Positions 18,417 to 60,165 of a DNA stretch of 64,000 bases are shown piece after piece. Source of the DNA: Acaryochloridaceae cyanobacterium VAR_48_metabat_390 (GTDB taxonomy: Bacteria > Cyanobacteriota > Cyanobacteriia > Thermosynechococcales > Thermosynechococcaceae); the NCBI GenBank assembly GCA_031422435.1, contig JANPLU010000101.1, positions 20,562-84,561 on the forward strand. Direction: 5' to 3'. Every line of letters begins with the position of its first letter. Positions within the stretch are counted from its first letter, which is position 1. Under the pieces are notes generated by a model that was not told the origin of the DNA, searched no databases, and worked only from the letters and a program-made list of their open reading frames with translations. Made by a program: the position numbers and the translations under genes.

Positions 18417-18552
18417 AAATATTTAAGTTAGACGGCAATGCAAACTAAAAAATTAAGTCAAAAAACAAAATAAATTGATTACTTTTTAAAAGTGTCTTAA
18501 AGATTGGACTATTTAACAGTAGATAATAATCAGTAAATAATCTATATTATTT

Positions 18553-20676: not shown

Positions 20677-20934
20677 ATCTCCTTTTTGATTAGATCTTTA
20701 GTTTTAATTTTAGGCTTATTAATGAACCTAAAATGCTTTTCTTCAAGATTATATCAGTATTTGAATTATACCTACAAATTATATTTTCAAATATCAGTAG
20801 GAAAATAACCTTTAAAACAGTTAAGTATAAATAAAAATTTAATTCGATTGATATTTAAGCAAGAATTTAATGATATTTATATAATTTAAAGTAATTCAAA
20901 TAACCCTTTTAATTACTGAATTACTACATATATT

Positions 20935-22419: not shown

Positions 22420-22436
22420 ATAGATTGTTGATCCTT

Positions 22437-23615: not shown

Positions 23616-23676
23616 TGATTTGTGATTAGCTCTGATTCTAAGATTTATTCAAAAAATATCTTATATTATTTAATTT

Positions 23677-24813: not shown

Positions 24814-24886
24814 GAAAGCGGACTGTATAAGATGTTTGCTTTTTTATTAAATACTATATCGAGAGTGTTTTTGTCGGGGGGATAGA

Positions 24887-26023: not shown

Positions 26024-26199
26024 TTCTATTCCCTCCAAACAGTCTGTTTTTAATGCTAGACTCCTTCTTTTATATTGGTAGAGATTCTACTGATATTTCT
26101 GAATTTATTAGTCTGCTTAATTGGGATTTATCAAAATTCCTGAGCCAGAAATTCAAGATGTTTTTATTGACTATTTTAACTGCATAGTACATATTTATT

Positions 26200-27363: not shown

Positions 27364-27392
27364 ATCTGATAACTGTATACCTGTACTAAATA

Positions 27393-28118: not shown

Positions 28119-28342
28119 CGGGTGATGAATATCTTGAATCAGTTACACAACAAGACTTTAGAGCATTTTTGAAAGGAATCACTGAGAACCTTCAATATCA
28201 AGGGTTAACGCCTTTATAACCCATTAAGGACACAGTGCCCTTAGTGGGCGATCGCGTTTTGGTTTTGGAGGGAAATGCGATCACTCCTCAGCCGACCTTC
28301 TCAGGATTTATCCCCATTTCTCGTAACTTCGCTGCCAAAGCT

Positions 28343-28762
28343 TCAGGCCGCATCACAAACTAATTTCTTAAAACTAGCCACAGAAACTATAGTTGTTTGT
28401 ATTAAATTTTGAGCTTCAGTAAAATCTAAATCGCCAGTAATCAAGAAATCTGCATTGCTTTCAATGTCACAGACTAGAAACTTAGCATCTTTTTGATCTC
28501 TAGGAAGATTAAGCTCCAATCCAGTACTCATTAAAACAGTAGCATTATCCAAAAACTCATACCATCGATTGAGCTGCTCTTGGAGTAACTTAAATTTTCT
28601 TCTGCTTAAAACTTCCTTGTATTCCCGTAAAATTTCTGCTGATACCACCCATTCAATTTCTGGATTACTAACAACAAAAAGAATAACAAACTCAGGATTT
28701 TTGCCAGATAGCGCCGCAGAAATTAAAACATTAGTATCAATGATTACTTTAATTCTCCGCAA
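28343..28762 (-). CDS. PIN-domain toxin (start codon possibly lost)
   Basis: VIIDTNVLISA, RDQKDAKF, LITGD; ATT where ATG is expected before KVIIDTN. Confidence 0.75.
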   Translation of the reverse strand: MRRIKVIIDTNVLISAALSGKNPEFVILFVVSNPEIEWVVSAEILREYKEVLSRRKFKLLQEQLNRWYEFLDNATVLMSTGLELNLPRDQKDAKFLVCDIESNADFLITGDLDFTEAQNLIQTTIVSVASFKKLVCDAA

Positions 28763-28989
28763 CGATAAGCCTCAATCTCCGCGACTATCTCATCATTAGT
28801 TAATGGATTATCTTGGTGTAATGCTTGGGTTTCTTTAAATAACTGCTGTAAACTTGATACCAAAACTTCTCTTTCCTTACCTTCTGCTATGATAATTACC
28901 TCAACCCTTTGTCCAGGTTTAAAAGGTAAGCCTGACAAAACGATATGATTTGGATCTTCTATAGTGAGATATCTTTTATAAGCATTCAT
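28744..28989 (-). CDS. Putative antitoxin paired with the PIN toxin
   Basis: MNAYKRYLTIEDP...LPFKPGQRVEVIII...EIEAYR; directly upstream of the PIN gene. Confidence 0.65.
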   Translation of the reverse strand: MNAYKRYLTIEDPNHIVLSGLPFKPGQRVEVIIIAEGKEREVLVSSLQQLFKETQALHQDNPLTNDEIVAEIEAYRCGELK

Positions 28990-29363
28990 AAAGTTTTTTA
29001 TAATTTTAGCCATAATTATATCATTTAAGCAAATGGAAATTGAGTCCGAAACTACGCGGTTAATCGAAGTCTCTAATTTCAATGGAGGGGTGATCGCACG
29101 CATCAAAAAAGATTAGGCTGGTGGGCAATTGCAGAAACTGGAAGGAACCTCTCTGTGCTTTCTTTATGTTTGGTGAAGGGGCGATCGCAGAATTGGAAAA
29201 GATTGTGTCAGTTTTGCCGTGTCGGTTGGTAGGCGATCGCACACTGCAAAAGCAAGCCACGGTTTTTCTGTTGGTTCTTGGAAAATCGACCATCAAAGCT
29301 AGTAGGCGATCACCGCAAAGTTCTGGGGTAGCCTCACCAGCGCCAAAATGTTAGGGTTTTATC

Positions 29364-39929: not shown

Positions 39930-41249
39930 CTAGAATTTCGTCAGGAATTTTAAAATAAGCTTTCTGTATATTGAGATTGGCGCAAGGGACGCTCTTTGGT
40001 CTTCGTCGGCTGGCTCAACATAGCGGACTAAAGCTTTCCATCGTTGTTCAATTGCCGCCTGCCAGTCATCCAGTACCTGTAACGTATTAGTCTGTGAGAG
40101 AACAAACTCCTCACTCAACTGGGCTTGAAGGTATTCTTTAACCCGTTCAGCCTGTGGGCTAAGCCGCTGAAGCGTTTGGAGCATTGGGTTTTTGGCTACC
40201 GTAGGCACCGCTGCAAACACATCCACCCCAAGCGCTTTTGTACGCTCACACCAGTAACATTGCCCATGAGCAACGCTGAAAACGTGAGTGTTCACCTTCT
40301 GGCAGCGCTTAAGATCGGCGATCGCCACCTTAAATGCCTGCACCCATTCAGAAGCCATTGGGCGCAATGCCGGATTGAGGTGCCCGTCATTGAAACAGCG
40401 TAGAAAACAGTCCTGTAACGCCGGATGCACAATGGTAAGCGGCACGGTCAATTGACTAACCTTAATCGGGCTACGAGCTGCATAGGGCCACCATCCTTGA
40501 CGTACTAACTCATTGGGGTCAGGGGAATCTCCTGAACCCGTCCATTTCCCCTTAAAGGGATGATCGCTAAACAGCAGTAAGTAACAAATCACGCCCAATC
40601 GAAAGCGATCATGTACTTCAGTTTGCTCAAGAGTTGTCAAGTCCTGATCCATTAACTCCGCAGGCGTAAACCCTTCAGAACCCACCGGACAGCGATAAAG
40701 TTGACCCGTCTTAGGGTGACACACCTGAAACGAGTCCGTATCAATAATGGAAGGCAAGGCACCATCATCCACCAAAATATTTTGGGGTTTCAGGTCGCCC
40801 AGCACATACCCCGCACTGTGAATCGCCCAAACCAATGAGGCAATATTCATCGCCGTCGCGTGGAGATATAGCCAGTTAAACTCAGGGCGCACAGCCTGCC
40901 GCCGCTGAGGATTGTAAACCTCTAGCAGATCGACTGCCTTAGCCACCTCAGGCATTAAAAAACCGATGGGTGCCCCTGTCTGATCTTGAAGTAATGCGGT
41001 AGGCCAAGCAAAAGAAATATGGTTTATGTGAGCGTTAGGATCCTTCGGTGGATGAGCAATCATCACCTCCAGCTTTTGAATGCGTTCTGGACGCGGCGCG
41101 TAATAGATTTTTGCAAGAGAGCCAGACTGATTGGTGCGCCAGATTTCTCCTTCCCCGCTGCTGGCAAGTTGCTGCACTAAGACAATGGACTGTCCTGTGC
41201 TCATACAGTTTAGAGAATGAGGGCTTTCAACCTGCATTGATTTCAACAT
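39930..41249 (-). CDS. Ser/Thr kinase (YegI / TerY-triad type)
   Basis: SGEG, AKIY, GDLKPQNIL, IDTDSF, TPAEL, C-terminal C/H cluster. Confidence 0.85.
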   Translation of the reverse strand: MLKSMQVESPHSLNCMSTGQSIVLVQQLASSGEGEIWRTNQSGSLAKIYYAPRPERIQKLEVMIAHPPKDPNAHINHISFAWPTALLQDQTGAPIGFLMPEVAKAVDLLEVYNPQRRQAVRPEFNWLYLHATAMNIASLVWAIHSAGYVLGDLKPQNILVDDGALPSIIDTDSFQVCHPKTGQLYRCPVGSEGFTPAELMDQDLTTLEQTEVHDRFRLGVICYLLLFSDHPFKGKWTGSGDSPDPNELVRQGWWPYAARSPIKVSQLTVPLTIVHPALQDCFLRCFNDGHLNPALRPMASEWVQAFKVAIADLKRCQKVNTHVFSVAHGQCYWCERTKALGVDVFAAVPTVAKNPMLQTLQRLSPQAERVKEYLQAQLSEEFVLSQTNTLQVLDDWQAAIEQRWKALVRYVEPADEDQRASLAPISIYRKLILKFLTKF

Positions 41250-41286
41250 GCCTTAAATTGAAAAAATTGTAGATTAAATTTCACGC

Positions 41287-42078
41287 TTACTTGGTTTCAA
41301 AGCGGCAAAGCAAAAGGGTTTTGTCATCATCCGTTTGCTTATTTAAATACTCAGACTCCAGAAACTCCATGATGTAAGCATCTTCTTGTTCAGGTATCGG
41401 CGTTTCGGCTAGATATTCTTCTAGAGGCTTGAAAAATGCCCCATGAGGCTTCCACTGAGGGAGGTGCATTGCCAATCGTTCAAAGGCATCAGTAGCGGCA
41501 CAGATAAATTGAGGCGTTTCTGAAATCACCTTAACCTGAAGGTCGCTGTGGGCATTAGATGACGTTACAAAAGTGGTCTGGTTCACAAATTCGCCCTTGT
41601 CAGGCGTAAACATCAGCTCATAGGCCTGAGAAGGGGTACTAACGACCATAAATCCGTCGCCAATCTGCATTGCCGCAAACCAGTGGGGGGTCGCAACAAA
41701 GGCTAAGAGCGTACAGGCTAAGGTGTCAAGTTCATAACCATTTTGGGTGGCCTGCTGCTGTAGCTCATTTCTAACTGCGGTTAAGGTGCGCTCAAACAGT
41801 CGCTGGGTCTGCGCTTGAGAAGGAGACTGCGCTACAGTAGGCCATTGTGGATTTTGGGTAGGCTGAAGCCAGGTTTCTAAATGAGAGAGATAATCTAAGG
41901 TGCTTTTGACCGCGATGGCTGCGCCCATTTCGCTATGGGATGCACTGCCAGCCCCATCTGCGATCGCCCCAATTACCACTTCCCCGAAGCTACGATGCCC
42001 CCCTGCATCTTGGCAGGGCAGATTATGCCGTTGATGACGTGTCCCAATTACAGAACGACTGAGCGATCGCCAAGCCAT
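41287..42078 (-). CDS. PP2C-like phosphatase (YegK / TerY-triad type)
   Basis: GTRH..PCQD, ADGAGSA, QIGDG, DDDKTL. Confidence 0.88.
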   Translation of the reverse strand: MAWRSLSRSVIGTRHQRHNLPCQDAGGHRSFGEVVIGAIADGAGSASHSEMGAAIAVKSTLDYLSHLETWLQPTQNPQWPTVAQSPSQAQTQRLFERTLTAVRNELQQQATQNGYELDTLACTLLAFVATPHWFAAMQIGDGFMVVSTPSQAYELMFTPDKGEFVNQTTFVTSSNAHSDLQVKVISETPQFICAATDAFERLAMHLPQWKPHGAFFKPLEEYLAETPIPEQEDAYIMEFLESEYLNKQTDDDKTLLLCRFETK

Positions 42079-42099
42079 ATAAAATCCCCCAAAACTAAG

Positions 42100-42753
42100 C
42101 TAACTCACCTGTCCCCAGCCCACGGGCGGCAGCTCCACGGCCTCACCCACCCTGCCGCTAGACACCCGCTTCATAGACTTACTCAGCCATACAAACAATG
42201 ACTGAAAGTCTAGCCCATTCAGCAAAACAGGGGGGCGATCAGCAGGCGCAATTTGAGAAAGCGTCTTAAGGTCAGCCCCTTCCACCGCCACCGAGAAAAA
42301 ACAGAACTTGCGCTCCGCTTCCCCTTGCTTAATTCGGGCAGCCGCATTTTGCCACGGATCTGTCGGCGCACCATCCGTAATCATAAAAATCCAGGGGCGA
42401 TAATACTGGATGCCGTTGTCTTGATAAACCTGCTTGCGAGTTTTGAGTAAGTCTAAGGCATACTCAATCGCTTCACCCATAGGCGTTACGTCATCTGCGA
42501 CCAAGGCGGGGGGCGTGAATTGGTCAATGGTGACAAAATCTTGCACCAGCTTTACAGGGCCAAAGGTAATCAGCGCAACCTCCACGCTTAAAGCGGCTTT
42601 AGTATCTGCCTGAATATTTTCTTTGAATAGGCTTACACCCTGATTAAGAGCGTTCATTGCGTCCCCAATCATAGAACCGGACGTGTCTAAGAGCAGAATG
42701 ACAGGGCAGCGGTTCTCAGGATTTTGAACAAACTCTGGAAATCCTACAGGCAT
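42100..42753 (-). CDS. vWA-domain protein (TerY / YegL type)
   Basis: LLDTSGSM MIDAS motif, YYRPWIFMITDGAPTD. Confidence 0.9.
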   Translation of the reverse strand: MPVGFPEFVQNPENRCPVILLLDTSGSMIGDAMNALNQGVSLFKENIQADTKAALSVEVALITFGPVKLVQDFVTIDQFTPPALVADDVTPMGEAIEYALDLLKTRKQVYQDNGIQYYRPWIFMITDGAPTDPWQNAAARIKQGEAERKFCFFSVAVEGADLKTLSQIAPADRPPVLLNGLDFQSLFVWLSKSMKRVSSGRVGEAVELPPVGWGQVS

Positions 42754-47317: not shown

Positions 47318-47809
47318 CTATACCTTGAGTACCCAAGCCTCGCGATTCTCTGCATTCACAAAAGAGGCTGGCACTACGGGAATCTTCACGCCCAAAGAAA
47401 CAAACGCAGCTCGAATGGCGGTTGCATGAGCGGATTCTGTGCTGCCAATGCTGGCTCCAGCGCTAATTAAAGCTGGGGTTTTAAGTTTAGCGACCTCTTG
47501 GGTGTAGGCGATCGCCGCATCGATTTCCAGCGCCAGCGCCAATTTTGCAATGTTGACATCACTGTCTACATTGCCTTCACCATTTTTGATGTAGGAAGAC
47601 ACATCGTAGCTAGATTCCGCCTTTACAGGGCTTCCGCCTAGGCTGCTGATTGCAGAGGTTAAGAGGTCGCGGTGCTGTTTGTGGTCGGCTTGGTTGGCGA
47701 GGGAGATCGCCAAGACGGCTTTACCCACATCCGTATTAGTCAGCTTGCCAGCGGCAAAGCTGTAGGCCCAAATGGCCTGATGCTCATAGAACAATGCATT
47801 GTTGAGAAT
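47318..47809 (-). pseudogene. Ferritin-like domain protein, 3' part (interrupted gene)
   Basis: ILNNALFYEHQAIWAY...H..H...LEIDAAIAY...ESAHA; joins in frame to 59989-60165. Confidence 0.9.
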
Positions 47810-47831
47810 CCCCAGTTAGATAACTTTACAG

Positions 47832-47996
47832 CTAACCCCTATAGTTTGGGATTCGTTTGTTAGTGAACCATGCCCATGAAGCCGTCGCCATCGCCGCGAT
47901 GATGCCCGTCACCTTTGGATAAACGCCGCACGAACTAAGCGCCCCACTGACCGAAGCCACAAAACCGAAAACCGAGGTGAGTCTATCCGTGTTCAT
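47832..47996 (-). CDS. Small two-TM protein, holin-like (54 aa, absent from the ORF track)
   Basis: MNTDRLTSVFGFVASVSGALSSCGVYPKVTGIIAAMATASWAWFTNKRIPNYRG; ATGA overlap with the upstream enzyme gene. Confidence 0.6.
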   Translation of the reverse strand: MNTDRLTSVFGFVASVSGALSSCGVYPKVTGIIAAMATASWAWFTNKRIPNYRG

Positions 47997-48538
47997 TGGT
48001 CATCCTGCCAAACAGAAACGTAAACATCGCCTTGCTCTACCAACGGTAGAATCTTGTCCCTCAAGTGGACATTGTGCAGCCTGAGACAGCCGAGCGTATT
48101 GAAAAGCTTTTGTAGCAATGCCCAAGCAAGAGGCCATCCGCAAGCCGTACCACCGCCGTGCATCATTAGACCAGCGCGAAAATTGCCGTCCTCATTGCCC
48201 TCAAGGTCGATAAGGTCAAAGCTGTACCATCCGTACTGCATGAGGGTGCGTTCATAGTTCGGGGAGCTGCCCACATCCTCATAGTCGCGGTAGACCTGCC
48301 CAATCCGGTAAAGACCAGGGGGCGTGTCTCCGCTGTTGGCTCTCCAGTCCGCACCCAGACCTTCAGCAAGACAGGGGATTGTGAAGAGACACATTCCATA
48401 GAAATCGAATGCTTTTAAGGTCTTAGACTGAGCATTGACCACCAGATGATAGTCACCCTTCTTAAAACCGAACTCTTGCGGCCTACGCCGTGGTGCAGTC
48501 AACATCAATCCAACCTCTCGTAATAGGGAACATTCCAA
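47993..48538 (-). CDS. L,D-transpeptidase-fold (YkuD-like) protein, putative endolysin
   Basis: DTPPGLY, MMHGGG...TLGCLRLHN (His and Cys catalytic motif); likely start at MLTAP. Confidence 0.75.
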   Translation of the reverse strand: MECSLLREVGLMLTAPRRRPQEFGFKKGDYHLVVNAQSKTLKAFDFYGMCLFTIPCLAEGLGADWRANSGDTPPGLYRIGQVYRDYEDVGSSPNYERTLMQYGWYSFDLIDLEGNEDGNFRAGLMMHGGGTACGWPLAWALLQKLFNTLGCLRLHNVHLRDKILPLVEQGDVYVSVWQDDQ

Positions 48539-48789
48539 GACCTAACCTGAACCGACTGATTTTTAGGATTATTATTCTCAGTCGAGGAGCGCTGCACTTT
48601 TCCTGCAAGGTCATTGCCTAACAGCAGGTTGCTGCCACCGATAAAGGTCAACGCCATTAGGATTCGGTCTAGACGAACCGTTAAGCTGCTGAGATTGCCG
48701 TTAGCAACTTTTATTTCAGCCATCAACCCGTCGCTAGCCTGCTTTGCGTCAGCCGCGATGTCTTTTAGGGATTGCTCATTTCTGTTCAT
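48505..48789 (-). CDS. Small coiled-coil plus hydrophobic-segment protein
   Basis: Tightly packed in the operon; hydrophobic ILMALTFIGG stretch. Confidence 0.55.
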   Translation of the reverse strand: MNRNEQSLKDIAADAKQASDGLMAEIKVANGNLSSLTVRLDRILMALTFIGGSNLLLGNDLAGKVQRSSTENNNPKNQSVQVRSWNVPYYERLD

Positions 48790-48792
48790 TTT

Positions 48793-50091
48793 TTATCTCC
48801 CCACGGCCTGCAAATAGGTTGTAATTGCTCCATTTATCGAAGTGCAATCAGCGTCAGTTATGCCAACGTCACCTTTAAGAAGCATCCAAAACTTAATGCC
48901 GCCTGTATTAAATTCACCGTTGCCAGACAATAAACGAATTTTATTGTTAGCCCTAACTACTGAATCGGATTCACGGCTAAAAGTGCTGTTATAAAAGAAC
49001 CTGTCTTTAATCTGTGTGCCATTTGCCGCCTTAGAATAAAGCGACATCAAGGCATCTAAAGGGTTAGGAAGACCTATATAAATATAAAAATTATTTACGC
49101 TGTGACAGCCGCCGTCAAATAGGTCTGTATCATCTCTAGCCATAGCTTTAAAAGAACCTTTAAACGTCCACAAAGGCTTGACATCATTTTTGTAAACGCC
49201 AGCAAATTTTAGAAACATTCCTCTAAAATTTGTAGCTGTCCAATGAGTATCTAAAAATGCATCAGATGGATAGCCTATGCCGCCATCTTCGACACTGGCA
49301 CCGCTAGCAGCGCTAAACGCACGAGTGCCAGCCCAATTTTCAAGAATGCCAGTTTGAGGATTCATCAAATTGAGAGACTGACTAGCTTCTGTAGTTCCCA
49401 TAAAAGGGTAAAGTGCAAAAATTTTGCCAGAAGACGCAAACTCGCCTAGATTAGCGACCAACTGATTCAAAGCATTTGTTTGAGCCGTGGTGAGCGTGTA
49501 ACCTTGTGCAGTCTGAGCCGATCTGTAAGCCTCAACAATCTCGGTAGGGGTTGGCGGTGCTGGGGGCACACCTAAAAGAGCATCAACTTGTGCTTTGGTG
49601 TAGTAATTACTGAGATCTGCAACGCCAGCGGCACCCGTATCGCCCTTGTCGCCTTTATCTCCCTTAAGTCCTTGAATACCTTGGGCACCAGCAACACCAG
49701 GTTCACCCGTATCACCTTTGTCACCCTTATCACCTTTGTCACCTTTTGCACCAGGGGCACCTGGTAGCAAGGTTGCATCCAGCGCCTCTATCCTGATATC
49801 CCAAGAAGTTTGACTTGGTAGCAGTCTAAAGCCGAGTTTACGCACCTCTAAAGACTCTGGCTGCTCCAAAATGAAGCTTTGAGGGTCTGCCTGATAGCTG
49901 AAATCGTCTTGGGTATAGATAAACCCCGTGATGTCAGCTTGGGCGATCGCCGCACTACTCTCTTGCAACTGACCATCCTGATTAAGGGGCTGACTCAAAT
50001 GCACCACCCTAAAGTAGCTGCCCACCAAAACATCAGTGAACTGCCACTGGTCAGACAGGGTGAAGGTGGCGATAGGTGTGAATAAGGTCAT
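48793..50091 (-). CDS. Collagen-repeat spike/fibre-like protein
   Basis: Beta-rich N-terminal domain, G-X-Y repeats (GAKGDKGDKGDKGDTGEPG...), DLSNYYTKAQVD, distinct C-terminal domain. Confidence 0.7.
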   Translation of the reverse strand: MTLFTPIATFTLSDQWQFTDVLVGSYFRVVHLSQPLNQDGQLQESSAAIAQADITGFIYTQDDFSYQADPQSFILEQPESLEVRKLGFRLLPSQTSWDIRIEALDATLLPGAPGAKGDKGDKGDKGDTGEPGVAGAQGIQGLKGDKGDKGDTGAAGVADLSNYYTKAQVDALLGVPPAPPTPTEIVEAYRSAQTAQGYTLTTAQTNALNQLVANLGEFASSGKIFALYPFMGTTEASQSLNLMNPQTGILENWAGTRAFSAASGASVEDGGIGYPSDAFLDTHWTATNFRGMFLKFAGVYKNDVKPLWTFKGSFKAMARDDTDLFDGGCHSVNNFYIYIGLPNPLDALMSLYSKAANGTQIKDRFFYNSTFSRESDSVVRANNKIRLLSGNGEFNTGGIKFWMLLKGDVGITDADCTSINGAITTYLQAVGR

Positions 50092-50441
50092 GGCACACGG
50101 GCTTCTAGGGTAATTTGCCAGTCAGACGATGATGGAACGCGAGTAAAGCGCCTAAGCCTGATTTGTGGCTCCCATCGGGCTATGCCATTGGAGCGCAACT
50201 CATCAGGAACTGAGATTCTAAAAATCTTTTTCTCAGCGCTGGGATATAAAGACCGAAAGGTAAATGAGGCATTCTCATCTACAAAGAACTGACGCAAGTA
50301 CGCCGTTCCCCGTGGGGCTGAGGTAAAGGTATGAGTGACGCGAATCAGAACAGTTTCAAGGTCAATAAGAATGCCATAGGCACCGCCAACAGCCTGCCAT
50401 TCTAGGCCAGGTTGAACGGTACCGAGGCTAACCCATGACAT
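50088..50441 (-). CDS. Small beta-rich virion-like protein
   Basis: Resembles the N-terminal domain of the collagen protein; ATGA overlap. Confidence 0.55.
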   Translation of the reverse strand: MSWVSLGTVQPGLEWQAVGGAYGILIDLETVLIRVTHTFTSAPRGTAYLRQFFVDENASFTFRSLYPSAEKKIFRISVPDELRSNGIARWEPQIRLRRFTRVPSSSDWQITLEARVP

Positions 50442-50705
50442 CTAGACCATCCCTGCCAACGCAAATTCCATGTCTTCTAGGTAATCGTCGGGGCTGATAT
50501 TGTCCTCTAACATGCAGTCGAGCAGGTCATCAGGATGCATTTCGCCTCTAACGATGTCTGACAATAGCCGCTGACGACGGAAATACTGATTCCAAAGCAC
50601 CTCGGGATCATCATCTGGGGTCTGAATTTGCTCAGGCTCAAGACTGAGAGCAGACCAAGCTTTAGCGCCATCCATTATGAAAAAGTTCCAGGGACGCAAG
50701 AACAA
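50442..50705 (-). CDS. Small acidic hypothetical protein
   Basis: In operon; probable start MDGAK at about 50675. Confidence 0.5.
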   Translation of the reverse strand: MFLRPWNFFIMDGAKAWSALSLEPEQIQTPDDDPEVLWNQYFRRQRLLSDIVRGEMHPDDLLDCMLEDNISPDDYLEDMEFALAGMV

Positions 50706-51202
50706 AGATATTCAGGGTTTGCGGCCTTCACACGACCGCGAATTGTCCGATATGCGGCATCTTCATCAATCACAATGGGAGAGCCTCCAGCGCCAAAGGG
50801 GTAAGTGTAAGACTTACCACCGTAAGTCCTGTAGCTCTTGCCCGTGAGCTGTGATGTTTTGCGAGTGCCCGTGCCTCGACCTTTGACGATTACGACTCTC
50901 GGAGCAATCCAGCCGGGTAAAAGAATCTGATTAGATGCGGCGGGTGCTTGAAAGGCATAGGTTTGAAAATAATTTCCTAAGTCACCTGTGTTGCCACGTC
51001 CACGCTGAACCTGAAGCACTTTTTTAGCCGTGTTTAGGCCAGGCATAAAGGGACGAACCCAGATTTCTAACCCAGATGAAGCAATTTGCTGTTTAGGGTA
51101 AGAAACCTCATTAGATCCGTCCAAGTACGCCAAAAGCTTCGTTTTGGCGCTGTTGCTGTTGCCTCGTAAGACTCCGAGGTATCTAGCCCCTCGTCTTTTC
51201 AT
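50675..51202 (-). CDS. Basic hypothetical protein, paralogue B (candidate capsid protein)
   Basis: Arg-rich N-terminus; colinear with 51205-51753. Confidence 0.65.
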   Translation of the reverse strand: MKRRGARYLGVLRGNSNSAKTKLLAYLDGSNEVSYPKQQIASSGLEIWVRPFMPGLNTAKKVLQVQRGRGNTGDLGNYFQTYAFQAPAASNQILLPGWIAPRVVIVKGRGTGTRKTSQLTGKSYRTYGGKSYTYPFGAGGSPIVIDEDAAYRTIRGRVKAANPEYLCSCVPGTFS

Positions 51203-51204
51203 GG

Positions 51205-51753
51205 CTAGACGCTATAGCTACCAGGCACAAAGCTGCACTGATTTAAGGCGCCTGTCGTACCACTTTTAACATTGGCTCGGATCTTTAAGAACACCGCGTC
51301 TTCACTCTTTTCGTCAGCAGCCGTACCTTCTCCAAAGGGTACAGATATTGTTTTGCCGCCATATTTGCGGTATTTCAATCCGCTAATTTTGGAGGTTTCA
51401 GATGTGCCAGCTCCTGCAGTTCTGCCTGTGGTAATCGCGGCGCGAGGAGATAAAACACCAGACAAAACGAGCTTAGAATCTTCAGCAGGCGCTGTCTCGC
51501 TGACATAAGGCGCTGCAAGAGCCACAATAGTATCGTTACCGGATTGAACAAACTGCAAAAGCTTGACACCAGCACCAAGGGGAAGCACAAAGGGACGCAC
51601 CCATACTGAAGCACGGGCGGGTCGGTTGCCTGCACGTTCAGGATATTCGAGATCCACATCTCCATTGAGATAGGCGAGAAGCTTAGTCTTCGCGCTAGGA
51701 CCTCTTTTGCCTCGCAAAATGTTTAGATACCGAGTGCCAGATCGACGTGCCAT
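51205..51753 (-). CDS. Basic hypothetical protein, paralogue A (candidate capsid protein)
   Basis: Shared RYL..LRG...AKTKLLAYL.G, WVRPF, YGGK...PFG, CS.VPG. Confidence 0.65.
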   Translation of the reverse strand: MARRSGTRYLNILRGKRGPSAKTKLLAYLNGDVDLEYPERAGNRPARASVWVRPFVLPLGAGVKLLQFVQSGNDTIVALAAPYVSETAPAEDSKLVLSGVLSPRAAITTGRTAGAGTSETSKISGLKYRKYGGKTISVPFGEGTAADEKSEDAVFLKIRANVKSGTTGALNQCSFVPGSYSV

Positions 51754-51859
51754 TTGAAAATCCTATTTTTTATCAGAAAGCTTATGGAAATCACCTTAAC
51801 TCGCTGAAGTTGGCGCAAATATCCATCGAACCCTATAGGGTTCGGGCGCTGCAAATAAG

Positions 51860-52675
51860 CTAAAAACTGACAAGTCCAGATTTTTCCGAAAATCGTCTTG
51901 TGACTAAAAAAATAGGGTTAGGAAGACCATGAATAGCAACGCTGGCATTATGAAACCGGACGTAAACTGTAGGACGTTCAACTGGCTTGTTTCTGCTTTT
52001 TCCCAAAATTATTTGAGTTCCAGGGGTAGAAGGAAACGTTTTTTTGGGTTCATGAGTCGTCACATAGTCATCGTTGTAAGGGCGCTGGGCACAGTCACAT
52101 ACTTTTCTGATAACCTCTATTCCTTCGGCTTCACTAAACGCGTAAATTTGCAGATTTAAGCCTGACTCAAGGTTTTTATAGGTCACAAGAATTTTGCCTT
52201 TGCGCCATCTGTAACCATTTGCAGCGCCTAGCTCTGATTTAATGCGGTTTGCGATGGCGTTCAGTTCTGCTTCGGTCAAGGTTGTGGAAGATTCGTTAAC
52301 CAGTCTGAAGCTGATTTCAGCGCGAGATGGAGAACGACCACTAGGCACACTGTCAGGATCTTGCTTGAAATAGAGATTGACCTGCGGTTTGTATTTGACC
52401 TGAGAATCATAATCAGCGACCGGAATTCCGTAGATGGGCGCTTGGAGGTCTGCGGCTTTTCTCGCATGGAAGAAGAACAGATGCAGCCTGAGCAGGGTCA
52501 TGTCTACGGTGTCGTCATCATCCAGCAGACAGGCGCGTTTGAGTGCCCCTCTAGGGATGGTTAGGGCATCGTCATCGGTAATATCACTGAACTCTTCACG
52601 AACGAGCTTGTTATGGTAATTTCTCAGCACGTCTTGAAGGTGTTCCCATTTTGAAAACCCTTGAGGTAAGGCCAT
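51860..52675 (-). CDS. Hypothetical protein (candidate structural)
   Basis: 271-aa ORF in the co-oriented operon. Confidence 0.65.
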   Translation of the reverse strand: MALPQGFSKWEHLQDVLRNYHNKLVREEFSDITDDDALTIPRGALKRACLLDDDDTVDMTLLRLHLFFFHARKAADLQAPIYGIPVADYDSQVKYKPQVNLYFKQDPDSVPSGRSPSRAEISFRLVNESSTTLTEAELNAIANRIKSELGAANGYRWRKGKILVTYKNLESGLNLQIYAFSEAEGIEVIRKVCDCAQRPYNDDYVTTHEPKKTFPSTPGTQIILGKSRNKPVERPTVYVRFHNASVAIHGLPNPIFLVTRRFSEKSGLVSF

Positions 52676-52678
52676 TTT

Positions 52679-55330
52679 CTACACTCCTGGTTTATTAAGG
52701 TCAGTGGCTTCGATGTTGGGAGAGGCGCTTACGGTTTTAGATGCCGTTGCCGCTTCTTTCTGCGGTTGGTTCTCGGTCTGAGATTTCTCGGTGCCCAAGC
52801 CTAGGGACTTGCCTAGTTCGTCTTTTTGAGAGGCGATCTGAGTGACAGTCTCCTGGGCGCTCAGAATTTCGCTGGCGACGCTATCGATTTGTGAAACGGT
52901 GTTCTCAACGGTTTCGAGTGCCTGGGTAAATTTGTTGTCAAAGTTAGGGCTAGGGTTCATCCAGGCGTAGGATGACTCACTGACGACGCCGGAGCGCTTC
53001 AGGGCGTTACCGATTCGAGCATTCCAGCCGCCGATGGTTTCTAGGGCGCTGACGACGGAAAAGCGTAGAGACTGGATGCTGTTCCCGAGGTTCGCGGCTG
53101 CCTGATAAATACGATTTGCTTTTTTGAAGTTTGTTGAAAGCGTGGTGTAGTTCTCTGTGCCGATGGTTTCTTTAACGGTGTTCTCAACTGATTTACCAAT
53201 GAGTTCGCCTAAATCATAGGCATTGCCGCCGTCGTCTCTAATGCCAAAAACTGACAGCCCGTTTGAGAGCATTGATAGCAACGTTTGCCCAAGGTCACGG
53301 CTGAGCATGAGCGCGTTATGCAGAGTTGAAATAAGGGTAAGGACGCTCACGAGCTGCCCGAGTCGTGCCCATTTTGCAAATTTGCCTAGTTTTTCTGCAA
53401 CCCCGCTTACGGCTTGACCAACTTTACCGAGCCGGTCGAAAGTGCGCTGTCCTTGGCCTGATAGACCGCCTTCAACTTGTTGACCTAGCTTGTTATTGAT
53501 TGTGGTCAGCAGCCCCAAGTCTAGGTATTGGGCAAAGCGCTCAAAATAGTTGGCAATCGCTTCAGAGTTATCAGCCGCTTTTTTAGAGTTGTCTCTGGCA
53601 TCTTGTGCGGCGCTTTCGATAGATGCGTTACATGCATTTCCTTGACATTTGCCTCCTGACTTTGGGGCTTGAGTGGGCGTAAAAGATGGCGGGGTGAAAC
53701 TATCCAAGGGGTTTTTCTCCTTATCGGGGTCAGTGCCGAAGGGGTTCGGGGTTGGGTTAGGAATAATGGGCGCGTAGGGCGGCGGGGGCGGTGGAGATGC
53801 GGGGGATGTTGGCGAAAAGGGGATGCTTGGCGGCGGCGCAAAGCCGCTATCGTCGCCAGTGTCTGTTCCAGGGCTAGTGCCAGGTTCACTTGCTCCAGTT
53901 CCAGGGCTGGGCACAGGACCCGGCACGGATGGAGCAGGAAGCGTTGTAGGGATAGCTGGCGATGGCAATGGAACGGGCACCGCTGGGACGGGCTGCGGTG
54001 TGGGATATGGCACTACTGGAATGGGTTCCGGTACTGCTGGCACTGGAGGAGGATCGGGGACTGTTGGAGACGGCTGCGGTGAAGGAGAAGGAACGACAGG
54101 AACGGGGGGCGGTACTGCTGGCGCAGGGCTAGGTTCTGGGATTGTGGGGTTTGGACTGGGCTGCGGTACTGGCTGCGGATAGGGGTCAATAAATGGCGGC
54201 GATGTTGGGCTAGGACGAAACGGGAAGTCCTCCTCAGTGCCGTCCGGATCTGGATCTACGCCAGGGGGCAGCTGCGGTGATGGTGATTCTTCAGGTTCTG
54301 GTTCTTCGGGCGATTCCTTGGGCTTAGGTTCTGCGGGGGATGGTGGGCCTGGTTCGTCTTCTGGTGGCTCTGGGTACTCAGGGTCTGGCAGTCCTGGGTA
54401 GCGTAGCGGCAGGTCAGGCGGTATCGTGTCAGGAATCTTAATCGGCGGCGGGGCAACCGTTGGAGGTGCTGCTGAATAGGGCGGCGTAAAGATGGGTTTT
54501 TCGTTGGGTGCGCGATCTCCGTCACACCGTGCAACGCATCTAAAGCCGTATTGAGATATGGCTGTCCATTCAATCCCACCAAAACGGGATAAGGCAGTAT
54601 TAAGACCCGCTGTCTTCCATGCAACGCTGTTGTAATATTCGATGTACTCAAGAGTGCTGGGCGGATCCATGTTTTGACGAGTTGCCAAGATAGGCCCTTC
54701 CCCGTCTGCTTCCATTTCTATGTCATAGTCTGGACCTACCCGAGGATCGTTTAGAGGGTTTGACCGCCTGAATAATACAGTCCATTTGTAGGCAGCAAAA
54801 AACGTACTCGCATCTTTAACAGGCCAAGTTTCACGGGGCTGTGCAGGTACATTTTTGCCTGTTGGGTCTTGTAGTCCAGATGGGGTATGAGGTGATGGGG
54901 CGATACCAGGGAGTCCGCCAGGGCTTCCTTTTTTTGGTCTGAAGATCGGGAATATAAAGGGAACGCCCAGTGACGGAGGGGGCGGGGGAAGGGGAATCGG
55001 AATCGCTATCGGCTGAGCGTCGGGGTAAAACGGGATTGCCCCAGGGCGGCGCACTCCACGCTTAGGGATAGGTACGGCAGCTGGGGGAGGCGCGGTTCTG
55101 CCACCAGGTACTGCACGACCAGGGACTGAACCACGTCCAGGCGCTGAACCACGTCCAGGCGCACCGGAAACGGGGCGACCACGACCAGGCGGCGCCAGCG
55201 CTCCAGGCGCTGCTGGATAAATGCCCTGATGTTGAAGTAATTCTTTGCCGAGCAGAAGGCCACCAGCAATAAAGGGTAGCGCCTCAGCGACGGCACCACC
55301 CGCTAACGGGAGCGCTAGGGGTAACGGCAT
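52679..55330 (-). CDS. Large proline-rich protein with helical/hydrophobic C-terminus
   Basis: Hydrophobic N-terminus, long Pro-rich tracts, C-terminal amphipathic helices. Confidence 0.7.
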   Translation of the reverse strand: MPLPLALPLAGGAVAEALPFIAGGLLLGKELLQHQGIYPAAPGALAPPGRGRPVSGAPGRGSAPGRGSVPGRAVPGGRTAPPPAAVPIPKRGVRRPGAIPFYPDAQPIAIPIPLPPPPPSLGVPFIFPIFRPKKGSPGGLPGIAPSPHTPSGLQDPTGKNVPAQPRETWPVKDASTFFAAYKWTVLFRRSNPLNDPRVGPDYDIEMEADGEGPILATRQNMDPPSTLEYIEYYNSVAWKTAGLNTALSRFGGIEWTAISQYGFRCVARCDGDRAPNEKPIFTPPYSAAPPTVAPPPIKIPDTIPPDLPLRYPGLPDPEYPEPPEDEPGPPSPAEPKPKESPEEPEPEESPSPQLPPGVDPDPDGTEEDFPFRPSPTSPPFIDPYPQPVPQPSPNPTIPEPSPAPAVPPPVPVVPSPSPQPSPTVPDPPPVPAVPEPIPVVPYPTPQPVPAVPVPLPSPAIPTTLPAPSVPGPVPSPGTGASEPGTSPGTDTGDDSGFAPPPSIPFSPTSPASPPPPPPYAPIIPNPTPNPFGTDPDKEKNPLDSFTPPSFTPTQAPKSGGKCQGNACNASIESAAQDARDNSKKAADNSEAIANYFERFAQYLDLGLLTTINNKLGQQVEGGLSGQGQRTFDRLGKVGQAVSGVAEKLGKFAKWARLGQLVSVLTLISTLHNALMLSRDLGQTLLSMLSNGLSVFGIRDDGGNAYDLGELIGKSVENTVKETIGTENYTTLSTNFKKANRIYQAAANLGNSIQSLRFSVVSALETIGGWNARIGNALKRSGVVSESSYAWMNPSPNFDNKFTQALETVENTVSQIDSVASEILSAQETVTQIASQKDELGKSLGLGTEKSQTENQPQKEAATASKTVSASPNIEATDLNKPGV

Positions 55331-55336
55331 TAACGT

Positions 55337-55642
55337 CTAGCTCTTGAAGCTGGCAGGAATCGGAGTGGCGCTCAGTTCTTGGACGTAGTTCCAGATTTGG
55401 TTGCCGCCGCCTTGCCAGTCTTTTGAGAGGGGGACTGAGACGCGCGAGATGTTGCGCCAGGTCGCAGGGTCTGACGCGGTGATGTAAAACGGGGCGCTGG
55501 ATGCGGTGCGGGTTAGGCTTCCAGTTGTTTCGACTGCGGTCTGGTCAGGGTTTAGGTTACTGAGCAGCGTTGATGCCCAAGCTTCAAGCTTTTCGACGGT
55601 GTTGATTTCTGAAGGGATGTCTGAAGGGGTGAAGGCGGTCAT
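55337..55642 (-). CDS. Hypothetical protein, first gene of the leftward operon
   Basis: 101-aa ORF, 6 bp from the next gene. Confidence 0.65.
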   Translation of the reverse strand: MTAFTPSDIPSEINTVEKLEAWASTLLSNLNPDQTAVETTGSLTRTASSAPFYITASDPATWRNISRVSVPLSKDWQGGGNQIWNYVQELSATPIPASFKS

Positions 55643-55840
55643 GCTGTTTTTTTGGTAGCTACACTGCCTATTTATTCACCTATAAAAAATCATTTCTACT
55701 CTGTCTTTTAAGTAAAAGATAGAGTTATTGTGTTAGCCTTATCGCGTTACACATCAACCATTACAGCGTTTTACACTCACTACTTGAAAAGCCTTTTCTC
55801 TCTGTTTTAGTGTTCCTTAAATTAAAAGACCTAGTAATCA

Positions 55841-56412
55841 ATGAAACTAAATAGGCACGGAAAGGCTACTGTGTTCTCTGAGTCTGACTATTTGAAGTTT
55901 CGAGACAAGGTTACGTCTAAGACCCATCGCCTTATTTTTGACTTCGGCTGGTGGACGGGCGAACGAATGGGCGCGATTCTGCTGCTAACGGTGGATAACG
56001 TCTACAGCAACCCTGCCAAGAGTGAGCCGCGCGATTATGTGACCTATCCAGCTTCTACTCGCAAAGACCGAAGGACGCGCCAAGTGAGAATCCATCCCGA
56101 GCTGGCGACAAATCTATGGGCGTATCGCCCACCGACAGAAGGCTTTCTGTTTCAGCGTTTGAGAAACCCGGGGCAGGCGATTTCGATGAGTGATATTGAC
56201 GCGCTGATGCGCTATTACCTACAAAAGCTGGGTTGGCAGGAGCGGGGCTACGCTACACACTCGTTCCGTCGCTCGTTTATCACGCGGCTCCATGAGAATG
56301 GGACAGACCCGATTGTGATGCAGCAGCTTACGGGACACTCGAACCTACAGAATCTGATCGCTATGTGGAGGTTGACCCGAATCGGGTTGACCGTGCGCTG
56401 CTGTCTCTTTAG
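55841..56412 (+). pseudogene. Tyrosine recombinase (catalytic domain only), frameshifted before the catalytic Tyr
   Basis: TGER, K, HSFRR, TGH present; RYVEVDPNRVDRALLSL* lies in the -1 frame from 56359. Confidence 0.8.
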
Positions 56413-56950
56413 GGGCTTTGCCTAGATAGCGCGATCGCTTCTTCCCGTTCTCATCACGCCACCGTTGCACTAGATAAGGGCCGTAGGTTTTTCCTTTAAT
56501 TGTTTTGTAGTTTTTCTCTACCCAATACTCTCCAAAGACTGAATCTGTAACGCTTTGAAGTGCTTTATCGCTAATCTTGTCCTGGTCTTGCCCACCAAAT
56601 AAGTCATCGTCTGTTTTTTGGTGGGCAGATTGAGGGCGATCGCCTCCCTCGATGCCACTTTTAGAAAAATCAGGTAACGAGTCATCAAGGGTTTCAGGCG
56701 AATTGTTTATGGCCACAACATCATTTGAGGCAGAATTGCTCTCATCCATGAGCGGGGCGGGGTGATAAAACAGCGGGTTATAGTGCAGCCCATCTCTGCA
56801 ATAAAACCAGCCAGCACCACAGAAGCATTTAATCTCTGCGTAACCTATTGGGATAAGACCGCCGCCGTCGTCGTCCTGGTCTTGCCCATCAAAAGCTTCG
56901 TGATAGAGAACTTTTCCGAGTAGGGTGAGCTGGTCATAGGTTAGGGTCAT
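56345..56950 (-). CDS. Hypothetical protein with basic C-terminal nucleic-acid-binding-like motif
   Basis: KTIKGKTYGPYLVQRWRDENGKKRSRYLGK. Confidence 0.55.
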   Translation of the reverse strand: MTLTYDQLTLLGKVLYHEAFDGQDQDDDGGGLIPIGYAEIKCFCGAGWFYCRDGLHYNPLFYHPAPLMDESNSASNDVVAINNSPETLDDSLPDFSKSGIEGGDRPQSAHQKTDDDLFGGQDQDKISDKALQSVTDSVFGEYWVEKNYKTIKGKTYGPYLVQRWRDENGKKRSRYLGKAPKETAAHGQPDSGQPPHSDQIL

Positions 56951-57251
56951 CGGCGGCGATCGCTTCTATTGCGACGGGGTTTATGCTGAAGTTTTCTCTG
57001 ACTAGGCGGCGGCACCTGAAAACCGAGCGGGGTCTTACGGAACTCTTTGATAACGTCCATGAATGCCAGTGCAACAATAGACCAGATGTACAGCAGCATG
57101 GCAAGACAAAACCCAGCCACTACAAGATTTAGGGATAGATAGATGAGGTTTTGGAGAAGTTAAATCATCGTTCTGAGGTAACGCGTCTTTCTCAGGGTGA
57201 ACACACAACAGACCAAAACTAACCCCATGCAATCAAGGAGATCGCATGGGG

Positions 57252-57620
57252 TTAGTTTTCTGAATCAGTAATCTCATTGAGCCGCTCAATGGTTGCTTCA
57301 AGAAGTTGAATGCGTTGCTTTTGCTGCTCAACTTCATTCTGCAACCTAGCCAACCGCAAACGCTCCTCTTCTAGCAGTTGGCTAATGACTCCCCCATTAT
57401 TTGGGCTTGCTGTGGAGTGGCATTCCCGATCATGCCCCTCGCGTATCTCTCTATCAATTCTGATCTGCTCAGTCCCTCTTGAACTGCTCTTTCGTCCAGA
57501 CTCTGAATGCTCAGCTCGGTTAGGGAGATGTTTAATCGTTTCTTTGGTTCTTCGTATGAACCGTGCTTTACTCCGGTCTTTCTTTGAGCCATTTCTTTTT
57601 TCCATAGTTGGTTCATACAC
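57252..57620 (-). CDS. Coiled-coil protein overlapping the RHH gene in another frame
   Basis: ISQLLEEERLRLARLQNEVEQQKQRIQLLEATIERL heptads; true start uncertain. Confidence 0.4.
   Translation of the reverse strand: MYEPTMEKRNGSKKDRSKARFIRRTKETIKHLPNRAEHSESGRKSSSRGTEQIRIDREIREGHDRECHSTASPNNGGVISQLLEEERLRLARLQNEVEQQKQRIQLLEATIERLNEITDSEN
57371..57592 (-). CDS. Ribbon-helix-helix (CopG-like) repressor
   Basis: KKRLNISLTELSIQSLDERAVQEGLSRSELIERYAR. Confidence 0.8.
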   Translation of the reverse strand: MAQRKTGVKHGSYEEPKKRLNISLTELSIQSLDERAVQEGLSRSELIERYARGMIGNATPQQAQIMGESLANC

Positions 57621-57711
57621 AAGATATTAACTGAACTCTTACACAACTACCATTACATTATTGCGCATTCTTACACAAGATGTTACCTTTGGGTGGCATC
57701 TTGTGTAAGAA
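57616..57711. promoter_or_regulatory. Divergent promoter region with repeated TACACAA operator-like sites
   Basis: TACACAA at 57616, 57640, 57672 and inverted at 57701; 15-bp inverted repeat 57668-57711; TTGCGC-N17-TACCTT with extended TG at 57661-57689. Confidence 0.6.
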
Positions 57712-57723
57712 ATAATTGTTCTG

Positions 57724-57876
57724 ATGAAACAACTCACCGTTCGTTACCAGCCTGACTCTGTTGAAGCGTTCTATGAAGGAAAAATTCTTTATCGCTGGTC
57801 AAACCCTGTGTTTGCAAGACAGCAGATAGCCGAGATCCAGCTCAAGGGCTGGACAATCATCCGAGAGGGCGTATGA
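57724..57876 (+). CDS. Small hypothetical protein (50 aa, absent from the ORF track)
   Basis: MKQLTVRYQPDSVEAFYEGKILYRW...; ATGA overlap with the next ORF. Confidence 0.55.
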   Translation: MKQLTVRYQPDSVEAFYEGKILYRWSNPVFARQQIAEIQLKGWTIIREGV

Positions 57877-58154
57877 CCGACAACTTCTATAGAGATATGT
57901 GCTTGCTGCTCTTTACAGCCCTAGACATGGCTTCAGAAGAAATTGCTACCGACCGCGAAGACCAGGACAGGTTCAGAAGTCTTTACATCATTAAGGCTTC
58001 TACGTTTCTCAAAAGTGATGAGAGCCTTTCCTACCGCGCTCAATGCCTTGAACATCTCAGACAACAACACAGACAGGAGCTATTGAAGAGTGTTTATAAG
58101 ACTTCCAGGCAATCGAATCATCAATCTGGCGAGAGTGAATCAAATCACCTATAG
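57873..58154 (+). CDS. Hypothetical protein
   Basis: 93-aa ORF coupled to the previous one. Confidence 0.55.
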   Translation: MTDNFYRDMCLLLFTALDMASEEIATDREDQDRFRSLYIIKASTFLKSDESLSYRAQCLEHLRQQHRQELLKSVYKTSRQSNHQSGESESNHL

Positions 58155-58359
58155 CTTTGACCTAAGTGAAGTCACCATCTTCTGGGCAACGGGTGATTGT
58201 GAACTTCATTTAGTTAAAGGAGATGCGATCGCATCTCCTTTACGCCATAGACAGGCTGAATGACCATCGTAAGCAGCAGCTCATTGACGTGCAGCAGTTC
58301 GTAGACCCCCATGCAAACGCTGAAACGGTTTTGTATGGAAGCGAATCACTTTTCTAAAA

Positions 58360-58417
58360 ACCCGCCTGATGAGTCTTAAATAGACGAAACTTTCCCAACG
58401 TTGGGAAAGTCGCGGGT
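58360..58417 (+). ncRNA. Type I hammerhead ribozyme
   Basis: acccgc-CUGAUGA-gucu(uaaau)agac-GAAA-cuuuccca(acgu)ugggaaag-UC-gcgggu; full core and three stems; predicted cleavage after C58411. Confidence 0.9.
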
Positions 58418-58615
58418 ACCCTTCCAAAAGGTACCAGCCCTAAATGCGATCGCTAATCGGGCTTAGTTGAGAATTGGCCTTGAATTATCGGGCTTTCAAA
58501 ATTCACGGCCTTGAATGCGATCGCGTTTAGTAGAGCTTTGTCGGTTCTCACAGTGAATAGGCCACGCATTAGGCGGGCTTCGGGAGATTCTATGAACCGT
58601 ATGGCAAGGCTTAAC
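58412..58615 (+). ncRNA. Bridge RNA (5' hairpin, target-binding loop, donor-binding loop)
   Basis: Guides gttgagaatt and tcaaaattc match the empty target; acagtgaat and gggagattc match the element ends; each pair is enclosed by a stem. Confidence 0.85.
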
Positions 58616-58670
58616 CGCCGAGCAAGCTTAAGTTTGGAACCCAACTCCTAGGACAAAAGCGAAAGCAAAT

Positions 58671-59873
58671 ATGCGAATTTTGGGACTCGACGTGTGTCGT
58701 GGCTCCGTTGTGGGCTGCTTATTTACAGAACTTCCAGATAACTGCTTAGGCTGGTTTAGAGCCAATAAACAATCCATTGAGAGCTACGAATCGACTCGTG
58801 AAGACGTTGAAAGACTGCTGGCACTGAAGCCAGACATGGTGATTCTAGAACCCACGGGCGTACACTACGCACGGCTTTGGGCAGACCATCTCATTAAAGC
58901 CGGAGTGATTGTGCGTTGGATTGGGCACGCACAACTAAAGTACGAACGCCTTACCCTGCGAATGCCCAATAAGAACGACGCGGCTGATGCCTGTGTGATG
59001 GCCTACTACGGGCACAAACATCTTTTAGAGCCTGAATACTTCCTCAAGTTCGATATTCATGGGGTCGCTGCATCCATGCGATCGCTCGGTTTGCAGCTCA
59101 AACACCTCAACAGTCAAAGCACCATCCTGACCAATCGAATCAGACAGAACCTAGCCCATGAATGGCCTGAAGTTCATCGGTATCAAACCACGGGGCATAA
59201 TGACACAACCCCGCCACTATGGCGCTACATCGCAGGGGGTAAGGTCGCAAAGATAACCAATACCAAATATTCAAAATCTCTGGGCAACACCATCGGCAGT
59301 GGTCTTTCTGAGTTCACCATTGACCACGCGATCGCACTCACTGAAAATGAAGCCCGTCAGATCAAGATTGAAAAGATGCTCTTTCATCTGGTCTACAGCC
59401 CTGACTTCGAGATGTATAACGAAGCCTTTGACCTGTTTGGTTTTGGCTTGCGGGTTCGGGCAATGGTGCTGAGTCATATTTTCCCAATCGAGAGCTTTCT
59501 AGGGGCTGATGATAAGCCTATCGTGCAATACGTTGACTCCACTGGAGTGAGGAAAAAGAGTAAACGCGATCGCAGTTTAGCCGCCTTTAAGCTGGCCTGC
59601 GGGATGGGCATGATTGAGGATAGTTCAGGGGATAAAGAAGTCTTTAAAGCTGGAGGTTCTGCTCTAGTGCGGGTGGCGCTGTGGCAATGGTGCTTTACGC
59701 ATCTAGAAGCCTATGGCGGTAAGAGAGCAACCGATAGCGAAGTCTGTAAAAAGCTGGTGACGTTCCTGCATACGAGAAAGTCTGCTAGTGGTTCACGGAT
59801 TCGGGTTGTACGATCTGCAACGGTGGCGCGGGCAACTGAGATGTTATTTAAGGAACTGGTCAAGAGGATTTAA
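58671..59873 (+). CDS. IS110-family (DEDD/Piv-like) bridge recombinase
   Basis: ILGLDV, LEPTG, KNDAADA (DEDD tetrad); C-terminal CGMG...SSG catalytic Ser motif; GG..VR..LWQW. Confidence 0.9.
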   Translation: MRILGLDVCRGSVVGCLFTELPDNCLGWFRANKQSIESYESTREDVERLLALKPDMVILEPTGVHYARLWADHLIKAGVIVRWIGHAQLKYERLTLRMPNKNDAADACVMAYYGHKHLLEPEYFLKFDIHGVAASMRSLGLQLKHLNSQSTILTNRIRQNLAHEWPEVHRYQTTGHNDTTPPLWRYIAGGKVAKITNTKYSKSLGNTIGSGLSEFTIDHAIALTENEARQIKIEKMLFHLVYSPDFEMYNEAFDLFGFGLRVRAMVLSHIFPIESFLGADDKPIVQYVDSTGVRKKSKRDRSLAAFKLACGMGMIEDSSGDKEVFKAGGSALVRVALWQWCFTHLEAYGGKRATDSEVCKKLVTFLHTRKSASGSRIRVVRSATVARATEMLFKELVKRI

Positions 59874-59892
59874 TCCGGTTTTATCATCTGCC

Positions 59893-59933
59893 CACCAAAA
59901 AGCCACCGTCTCTCAATCGGTGGCTTTTTGGTG
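59893..59933 (+). terminator. Strong bidirectional terminator-like hairpin at the element right end
   Basis: caccaaaaagccaccg...cggtggctttttggtg, 16-bp perfect inverted repeat. Confidence 0.75.
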
Positions 59934-59988
59934 AGTTTGGAAGATAGGAAAGGCTATGCAGGCCTGGTAACGATCTACTACAGTGAAT

Positions 59989-60165
59989 TTTGACATCGTT
60001 CTGTTTAGAAGGGGTCGCAGCATCCGCCCGACCTGCCAGCAGCGGTAAGCCCAGCGCACTCACAATGCCGCCTGCGACCCCAGCCATACTCCCCGTCACC
60101 AAAACATCGCGGCGGGAAACACCCTTGCGTCGAGGACGGTCTAGGTCGTAGTTATATTCGTTCAT
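59989..60165 (-). pseudogene. Ferritin-like domain protein, 5' part with Tat-like signal (interrupted gene)
   Basis: MNEY...SRRDVL...AGRADAA-TPSKQNDVK; continues as ILNNALFYE at 47809. Confidence 0.88.

Follow-up and report, generated by a model that had tools for sequence, protein, structure and literature searches.

What is the tightly packed set of minus-strand genes at 47832-55642 of a 64,000-nt stretch of contig JANPLU010000101.1 from Acaryochloridaceae cyanobacterium VAR_48_metabat_390 (the whole stretch is called the window below), and what moves it? A preliminary description had proposed a structural and lysis operon of a cyanobacterial provirus or satellite that uses a bridge recombinase as its integrase. 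We find that the genes lie in a mobile element of 12,179 bp and, with a probability of about 0.65, take this element to be an integrated cyanobacterial virus, autonomous or formerly so, from a so far undescribed family whose members are small (8-19 kb), temperate and probably tailless, and one branch of which, judging from sequence, uses an IS110 bridge recombinase as integrase.

The limits of the element were set by the joint of an empty site and by a 12,183-nt contig with the same ends, as follows:

47806..59988: entire mobile element, made up of 12,179 bp and one duplicated core of 4 bp
47806..47809, plus strand: left core GAAT, followed by the conserved left end CCCCAG
59985..59988, plus strand: right core GAAT, with the donor arm ACAGT just before it
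47318..47809, minus strand: 3' half of a host ferritin-like gene (PF13668, E 2.6e-17)
59985..60165, minus strand: 5' half of the same gene, with a twin-arginine-like signal (weak TAT_signal match, E 0.058)

When the element was removed in silico, the flanking halves rejoined as a single 221-aa open reading frame (ORF) of the ferritin-like gene. Four sequencing runs, X1, X2, X3 and X5, were compared with the window, X3 and X5 being from two studies. In X3 and X5 the site is empty, with a joint from 47805 to 59985 that skips 12,179 nt and has 4 bases common to both sides; the X5 sample, empty at the host site, also holds a 13,387-nt contig of a mosaic relative that is closely similar in the recombinase regions. 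In X1 and X2, from which the window may derive, the element forms one core-to-core contig of 12,183 nt that ends exactly as in the window; the contigs break exactly at both cores and the flank contigs extend 30 nt into the element, so each end must have a second neighbour, either a circle or another insertion site, and among the joints listed none explains it. The contig depths of element and flanks, which are not to be read as copy number, were 14.6 versus 7.3 and 10.3, and 8.9 versus 6.7 and 7.1, in these runs. The HIP1 frequency, 1.04 per kb, and the named homologues point to a cyanobacterial host.

The right end of the element holds a recombinase gene preceded by a predicted guide RNA:

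58440..58612, plus strand: predicted bridge RNA; target loop with left target guide (LTG) at 58466 and right target guide (RTG) at 58496, donor loop with left donor guide (LDG) at 58550 and right donor guide (RDG) at 58582
58671..59873, plus strand: IS110-family recombinase, 400 aa (NF051857, 398.5 bits against a cut-off of 180)

The recombinase keeps D7, E60, D103 and D106 as well as Ser-Ser-Gly at 318 (motifs GLDV, EPTG, KNDAADA and SSG); in Pfam, PF01548 matched weakly and PF02371 did not match. The predicted RNA has two predicted stem-loops and its guides stand in the order described for IS621 (PMC11208160). They match the left target at 9/9, the right target at 9/9, the left donor at 9/9 and the right donor at 7/9 positions, and all three 9-mers were held by 0 of 20,000 resampled sequences. 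Because the two ends recognised by the donor guides are 12 kb away from each other, it is the entire element that moves. The earlier proposal of a bridge recombinase as integrase is supported by the ends and core of the element, by the full set of four guides, by the empty site and by relatives in which the ends are joined, and we consider RNA-guided, scarless integration and excision of the whole element at a GAAN core to be very probable.

The four-guide model was also applied to 24 loci of this IS110 clade: the window itself, six loci that the core search had yielded, eight picked near core genes and nine long-context loci that were not so picked. Thirteen of the 24 fitted with at most 4 mismatches of 34, the lowest score among 72 controls being 5 mismatches; the other 11 loci did not resolve. 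Eleven of the fitting elements share the left end GAAT-CCCC, and these span 8,051-18,820 bp (L044 ties with another solution). Target guides track the flank of each locus, donor guides and element ends are nearly constant, and joined element ends are directly present in L054 and L061. Of 401 genomes, 39 had a match to the clade above its cut-off, and of 14 controls none did. Module genes accompany it in six of the nine loci not picked for core genes, terminase and DUF4055 genes in one (L144), and neither in two. At L144 (G080:C32:7400-26110) genes for a large terminase and for a helix-turn-helix protein like a small terminase, together with a DUF4055 gene, adjoin the recombinase, with ends that did not resolve, and the clade may integrate a tailed prophage there too.

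IS621-type bridge elements have a DEDD recombinase and an upstream non-coding RNA with loops in LTG-RTG-LDG-RDG order (PMC11208160). The present element is like IS621 in its DEDD recombinase, target and donor loops, guide order, short core, scarless excision and circular form (PMC11208160), and unlike it in size (8-19 kb), in its GAAN core instead of CT, in donor guides that span a multi-gene operon and in its unrelated single target sites. It also differs from compact IS110 elements, which code for their own mobility only, in having 12,179 bp with 11 cargo ORFs and accessory genes. Expanded cargo-bearing IS110 loci have been described as multi-kb units with bridge-RNA-matched ends, one recovered as a 9,177-bp circle, with mostly plasmid-derived cargo gained stepwise and with whole-unit mobility that drops with size; the terms 'cyanobacter', 'capsid', 'prophage' and 'virus' have 0 occurrences in the main text of that work (10.64898/2026.08.14.744561). 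Compared with those loci, the present family has one conserved virus-like operon that is also moved by other integrases. In the part of the literature covered, we found neither this gene family nor the use of a bridge recombinase as provirus integrase described.

The cargo itself fills 47832-55642 with 11 minus-strand ORFs, given here from the first gene of the operon to the last:

55337..55642, minus strand: 101-aa protein, first gene of the operon
52679..55330, minus strand: 883-aa protein, with a hydrophobic N end, a variable Pro-rich middle and a conserved C-terminal region of about 300 aa
51860..52675, minus strand: 271-aa core protein, with a helical N domain and an alpha/beta C domain of weak 2H-phosphoesterase likeness
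51205..51753, minus strand: 182-aa basic (+11) alpha/beta core protein, candidate capsid or nucleocapsid protein
50675..51202, minus strand: 175-aa basic (+17) protein, paralogue of the 182-aa protein
50442..50705, minus strand: 87-aa acidic core protein
50088..50441, minus strand: 117-aa protein, in a slot mostly held by another family in relatives
48793..50091, minus strand: 432-aa fibre-like protein, with an N-terminal domain, a collagen repeat and a C-terminal domain unique to this copy
48505..48789, minus strand: 94-aa ORF with one weakly hydrophobic stretch, possible lysis accessory
47993..48505, minus strand: 170-aa YkuD/L,D-transpeptidase-like protein, endolysin candidate
47832..47996, minus strand: 54-aa hydrophobic ORF, holin candidate from its position

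Nine of the ten intergenic gaps lie between -31 and +6 nt and the remaining one is 106 nt, so that the tight packing reported at first held, with eleven ORFs in place of ten. The collagen-repeat protein was recovered as residues 111-156 of the 432-aa ORF (PF01391, E 2.7e-8), and the supposed peptidoglycan-enzyme fold as a weak YkuD match of the 170-aa ORF (PF03734, E 2.2e-4; 22.3 bits against a cut-off of 23.4). The protein with two transmembrane segments is plausible only: the 54-aa ORF has two mildly hydrophobic stretches, and its best 19-residue Kyte-Doolittle mean, 1.39, is below the threshold of 1.5. The 182- and 175-aa paralogues share about 40% identity. The N domain of the fibre recurs in L065 and shows a marginal likeness to the 117-aa ORF (pairwise E 0.005), and its C domain was found in 1 of 36 loci. 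The 883-aa protein is a candidate receptor-binding or DNA-delivery protein.

Relatives of the operon were sought by the 271-aa protein, which has 209 homologues and, within the 401 genomes sampled from the phylum, matches in 42; the 182-aa family is present in 37 of the 401 and comprises 740 clusters. Proteins of the family are carried by cultured cyanobacteria too, among them Nostoc punctiforme NIES-2108, Geitlerinema PCC 7407 and Nostocales HT-58-2. Of 36 loci selected through the 271-aa protein, 35 have the 883-aa C domain, 28 the 182-aa family, 27 a Trp-rich family of about 150 aa (c3) and 25 the 87-aa family, and the first slot is held by the 101-aa family in 9 or by family c4 in 20. In the window the slot of c3 is occupied by the 117-aa protein; homology between the two is unsupported by hhalign (prob 0.7), and both, like the fibre N domain, are beta-rich. 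Syntenic blocks in cyanobacterial genomes, which the preliminary description had suggested looking for, were found, and they also travel with other integrases: the gene order is conserved over many genera and always lies within a small mobile unit. Around it, primase-helicase domains occur in 9 of 20 loci, the circle L063 holds what we take to be Rep_trans-like motifs (no Pfam match), and the wall enzymes interchange between YkuD, M15, M23 with a peptidoglycan-binding domain and Tlde1. Terminal overlaps were seen in 2 of 13 metagenome contigs, both of about 11.5 kb, and the cargo module lies on two circular plasmids. Small temperate viruses usually show just this: a late-type operon that stays fixed while the genes for replication, integration, fibre and lysis around it are exchanged.

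Several relatives depart from this arrangement. In a second subtype (L066-L077), proteins of 350-520 aa contain the 271-aa C domain, often as two related tandem genes, and are accompanied by a Tlde1-like enzyme. A third subtype (L128, L129, L139, L140), with 121 homologues, combines c4 with a long protein of coiled-coil or collagen type and with two basic proteins of only 109-125 aa, without the 271-aa gene. In L043 and L058 the 883-like gene runs in the opposite direction to the 271-like gene, and a wall peptidase is encoded close by. A TIR-domain gene just inside the element end at L038:6208-7014 is possible defence cargo, and a 1,664-aa plasmid ORF with a MACPF match (L051:9827-14821) adjoins the module.

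Is the operon then viral? The claim of a structural and lysis operon is backed by the gene order, by the swappable replication and lysis genes and by the circles; a capsid protein was not identified in the element. As in the preliminary description, no terminase, portal, capsid, Zot or Rep was recognised when the ten larger cargo ORFs were searched against Pfam, PHROGs and NCBIfam, the sole PHROG matches being the collagen stretches of tail fibres, and NCBIfam matched none of the core cargo proteins. Nor was a Walker A motif found in the 16 element ORFs tested, again in agreement with the earlier reading, and its 4 matches in 14 elements or circles are chance-like. With respect to Caudoviricetes, large terminase and portal gave no profile match and no Walker A in the delimited element; for Varidnaviria, the Walker A of an FtsK-HerA packaging ATPase is missing from the window element; for Inoviridae and Tubulavirales, a pI/Zot ATPase was not found by Pfam, PHROGs or Walker A search, and, as regards a small single-pass transmembrane major coat protein, the only cargo protein both small and hydrophobic is the 54-aa ORF at the operon end; for Microviridae, a 400-550-aa jelly-roll VP1 and an HUH Rep had no match in Pfam or PHROGs.

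Structure prediction and fold search, the other check proposed, covered 2 of the 11 cargo proteins, the 271- and 182-aa proteins; both models are alpha/beta by DSSP, neither gave a convincing match, and there was no HK97 match of note. In the 271-aa C domain the two H-x-T/S motifs of 2H phosphoesterases are absent: position 98 is Q in 85 of 112 sequences and H in 8, the second site has no His, and hhalign gave prob 0.8 against these enzymes. With no capsid protein identified and no convincing model match, a small non-tailed virus is likely but unproven.

The strongest competitor, which we nevertheless judge unlikely, is a non-viral integrative element or plasmid whose operon builds an apparatus that is secreted or sits on the surface, such as an adhesin or a particle for DNA transfer or killing, and is merely mobilised by IS110. 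It would account for the missing capsid fold and packaging motor, for the module on annotated plasmids with ParA/ParB and for its likeness to the large cargo-bearing IS110 elements, mostly of plasmid origin, described in 10.64898/2026.08.14.744561; one gene order over many genera with swapped replication and wall genes is, however, unlike stepwise capture of mixed cargo, and the delimited elements yielded neither a relaxase nor a coupling protein nor a secretion ATPase.

A phage satellite, with its own integration genes (in relatives also primase) and a helper phage for packaging, whose structures the cargo remodels or partly replaces, appears somewhat less probable again. The size of 8-19 kb, the integrase with primase-helicase in many relatives, the lack of an ATPase and the lack of a Rep in this copy fit such an element, and the first two are shared with phage-inducible chromosomal islands (PICI) and P4-like satellites. 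Unlike these, the family has its own large structural-type and lysis operon, including a wall enzyme and a fibre, with no match to terS or an HK97-type capsid, and its conserved late-type genes of about 7.8 kb exceed what satellites usually have. A host-domesticated switch, in which a decayed provirus is retained since regulated excision restores the exported ferritin-like gene, as in heterocyst excision elements, is very improbable; the restored 221-aa ORF, the frameshifted tyrosine recombinase and the contig breaks at both cores in X1 and X2 are set against an empty site in close relatives (X3, X5), other copies at unrelated sites, intact cargo ORFs and the lack of an empty-site joint among those listed for X1 or X2.

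Among known viruses, the nearest to the favoured small temperate virus are tailless lipid or ssDNA phages such as the FLiP-like Finnlakeviridae, with circular genomes of 9-15 kb, no packaging ATPase and a lysis enzyme, and the P31/P5 vertex of PRD1, where a collagen spike has an N domain resembling a neighbouring small protein, a likeness that is marginal here. Unlike FLiP and PRD1, no jelly-roll major capsid protein was found and both modelled core proteins are alpha/beta. Inoviruses and plectroviruses share a small integrated genome, a long Pro-rich attachment-like protein and, in one relative, a Rep_trans-like initiator; the family differs from them in having wall-lysis enzymes, no Zot/pI ATPase and no recognised conserved small transmembrane coat.

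The sequences show that the predicted bridge RNA pairs both with the host site and with the ends of the element once these are joined, and that recombination at the GAAN core inserts or excises the whole unit without a scar. For what follows we propose that the excised circle would be copied, in relatives with the help of primase-helicases or a Rep_trans-like protein. The 101-, 182/175-, 271- and 87-aa products of the leftward operon would form a particle, to which the 883-aa protein and the collagen fibre would lend the means to attach or enter. No packaging ATPase would be needed to bring genome and shell together, and the cell wall would be opened by the YkuD enzyme and small hydrophobic proteins. 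That these viruses form a widespread tailless class with a capsid fold absent from the PDB, motor-free packaging and, in one branch, a domesticated, reprogrammable bridge-RNA integrase that would gain new attachment sites through changes in a few guide bases is a bolder proposal, which we advance at somewhat less than even odds.

In temperate viruses the choice of integration site is normally encoded in a protein; the present virus-like element appears to integrate by RNA guides, rewritten in nature for at least 11 different sites, with 8-19 kb moved whole, and its relatives offer a set of naturally occurring bridge recombinases that have evolved to move large cargo. Current virus profiles miss the large family that the cargo marks, with matches in 42 of the 401 genomes and 740 clusters of one protein. 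Particles, if found, would make it a new group of viruses infecting major primary producers, and its capsid architecture might be new as well.

The remaining genes of the element lie between the operon and the bridge RNA:

55841..56425, plus strand: small tyrosine recombinase (PF00589), with a frameshift near 56345 and a frame without the catalytic Tyr
56345..56950, minus strand: 201-aa ORF with a DUF1678-like C end
57371..57646, minus strand: ribbon-helix-helix regulator (PF01402, E 1e-5)
57873..58154, plus strand: 93-aa ORF without a family match

The catalytic Tyr is kept in 8 of 8 relatives compared; being frameshifted and without it, the tyrosine recombinase cannot be the active integrase in this copy. 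No replication initiator was recognised in this copy of the element. An inverted repeat at 57215-57259, with 20-nt arms of 95% complementarity and a 5-nt loop, is terminator-like. Elsewhere in the window, 17001-29000 is a low-GC island (0.28-0.37 versus about 0.49 around it) that was probably acquired, and 8001-14000 has a strong positive GC skew of 0.22-0.37, which hints at a long gene of repetitive or unusual composition. Successive vWA, PP2C-like and kinase-like ORFs at 39930-42753 on the minus strand resemble a TerY-P triad.

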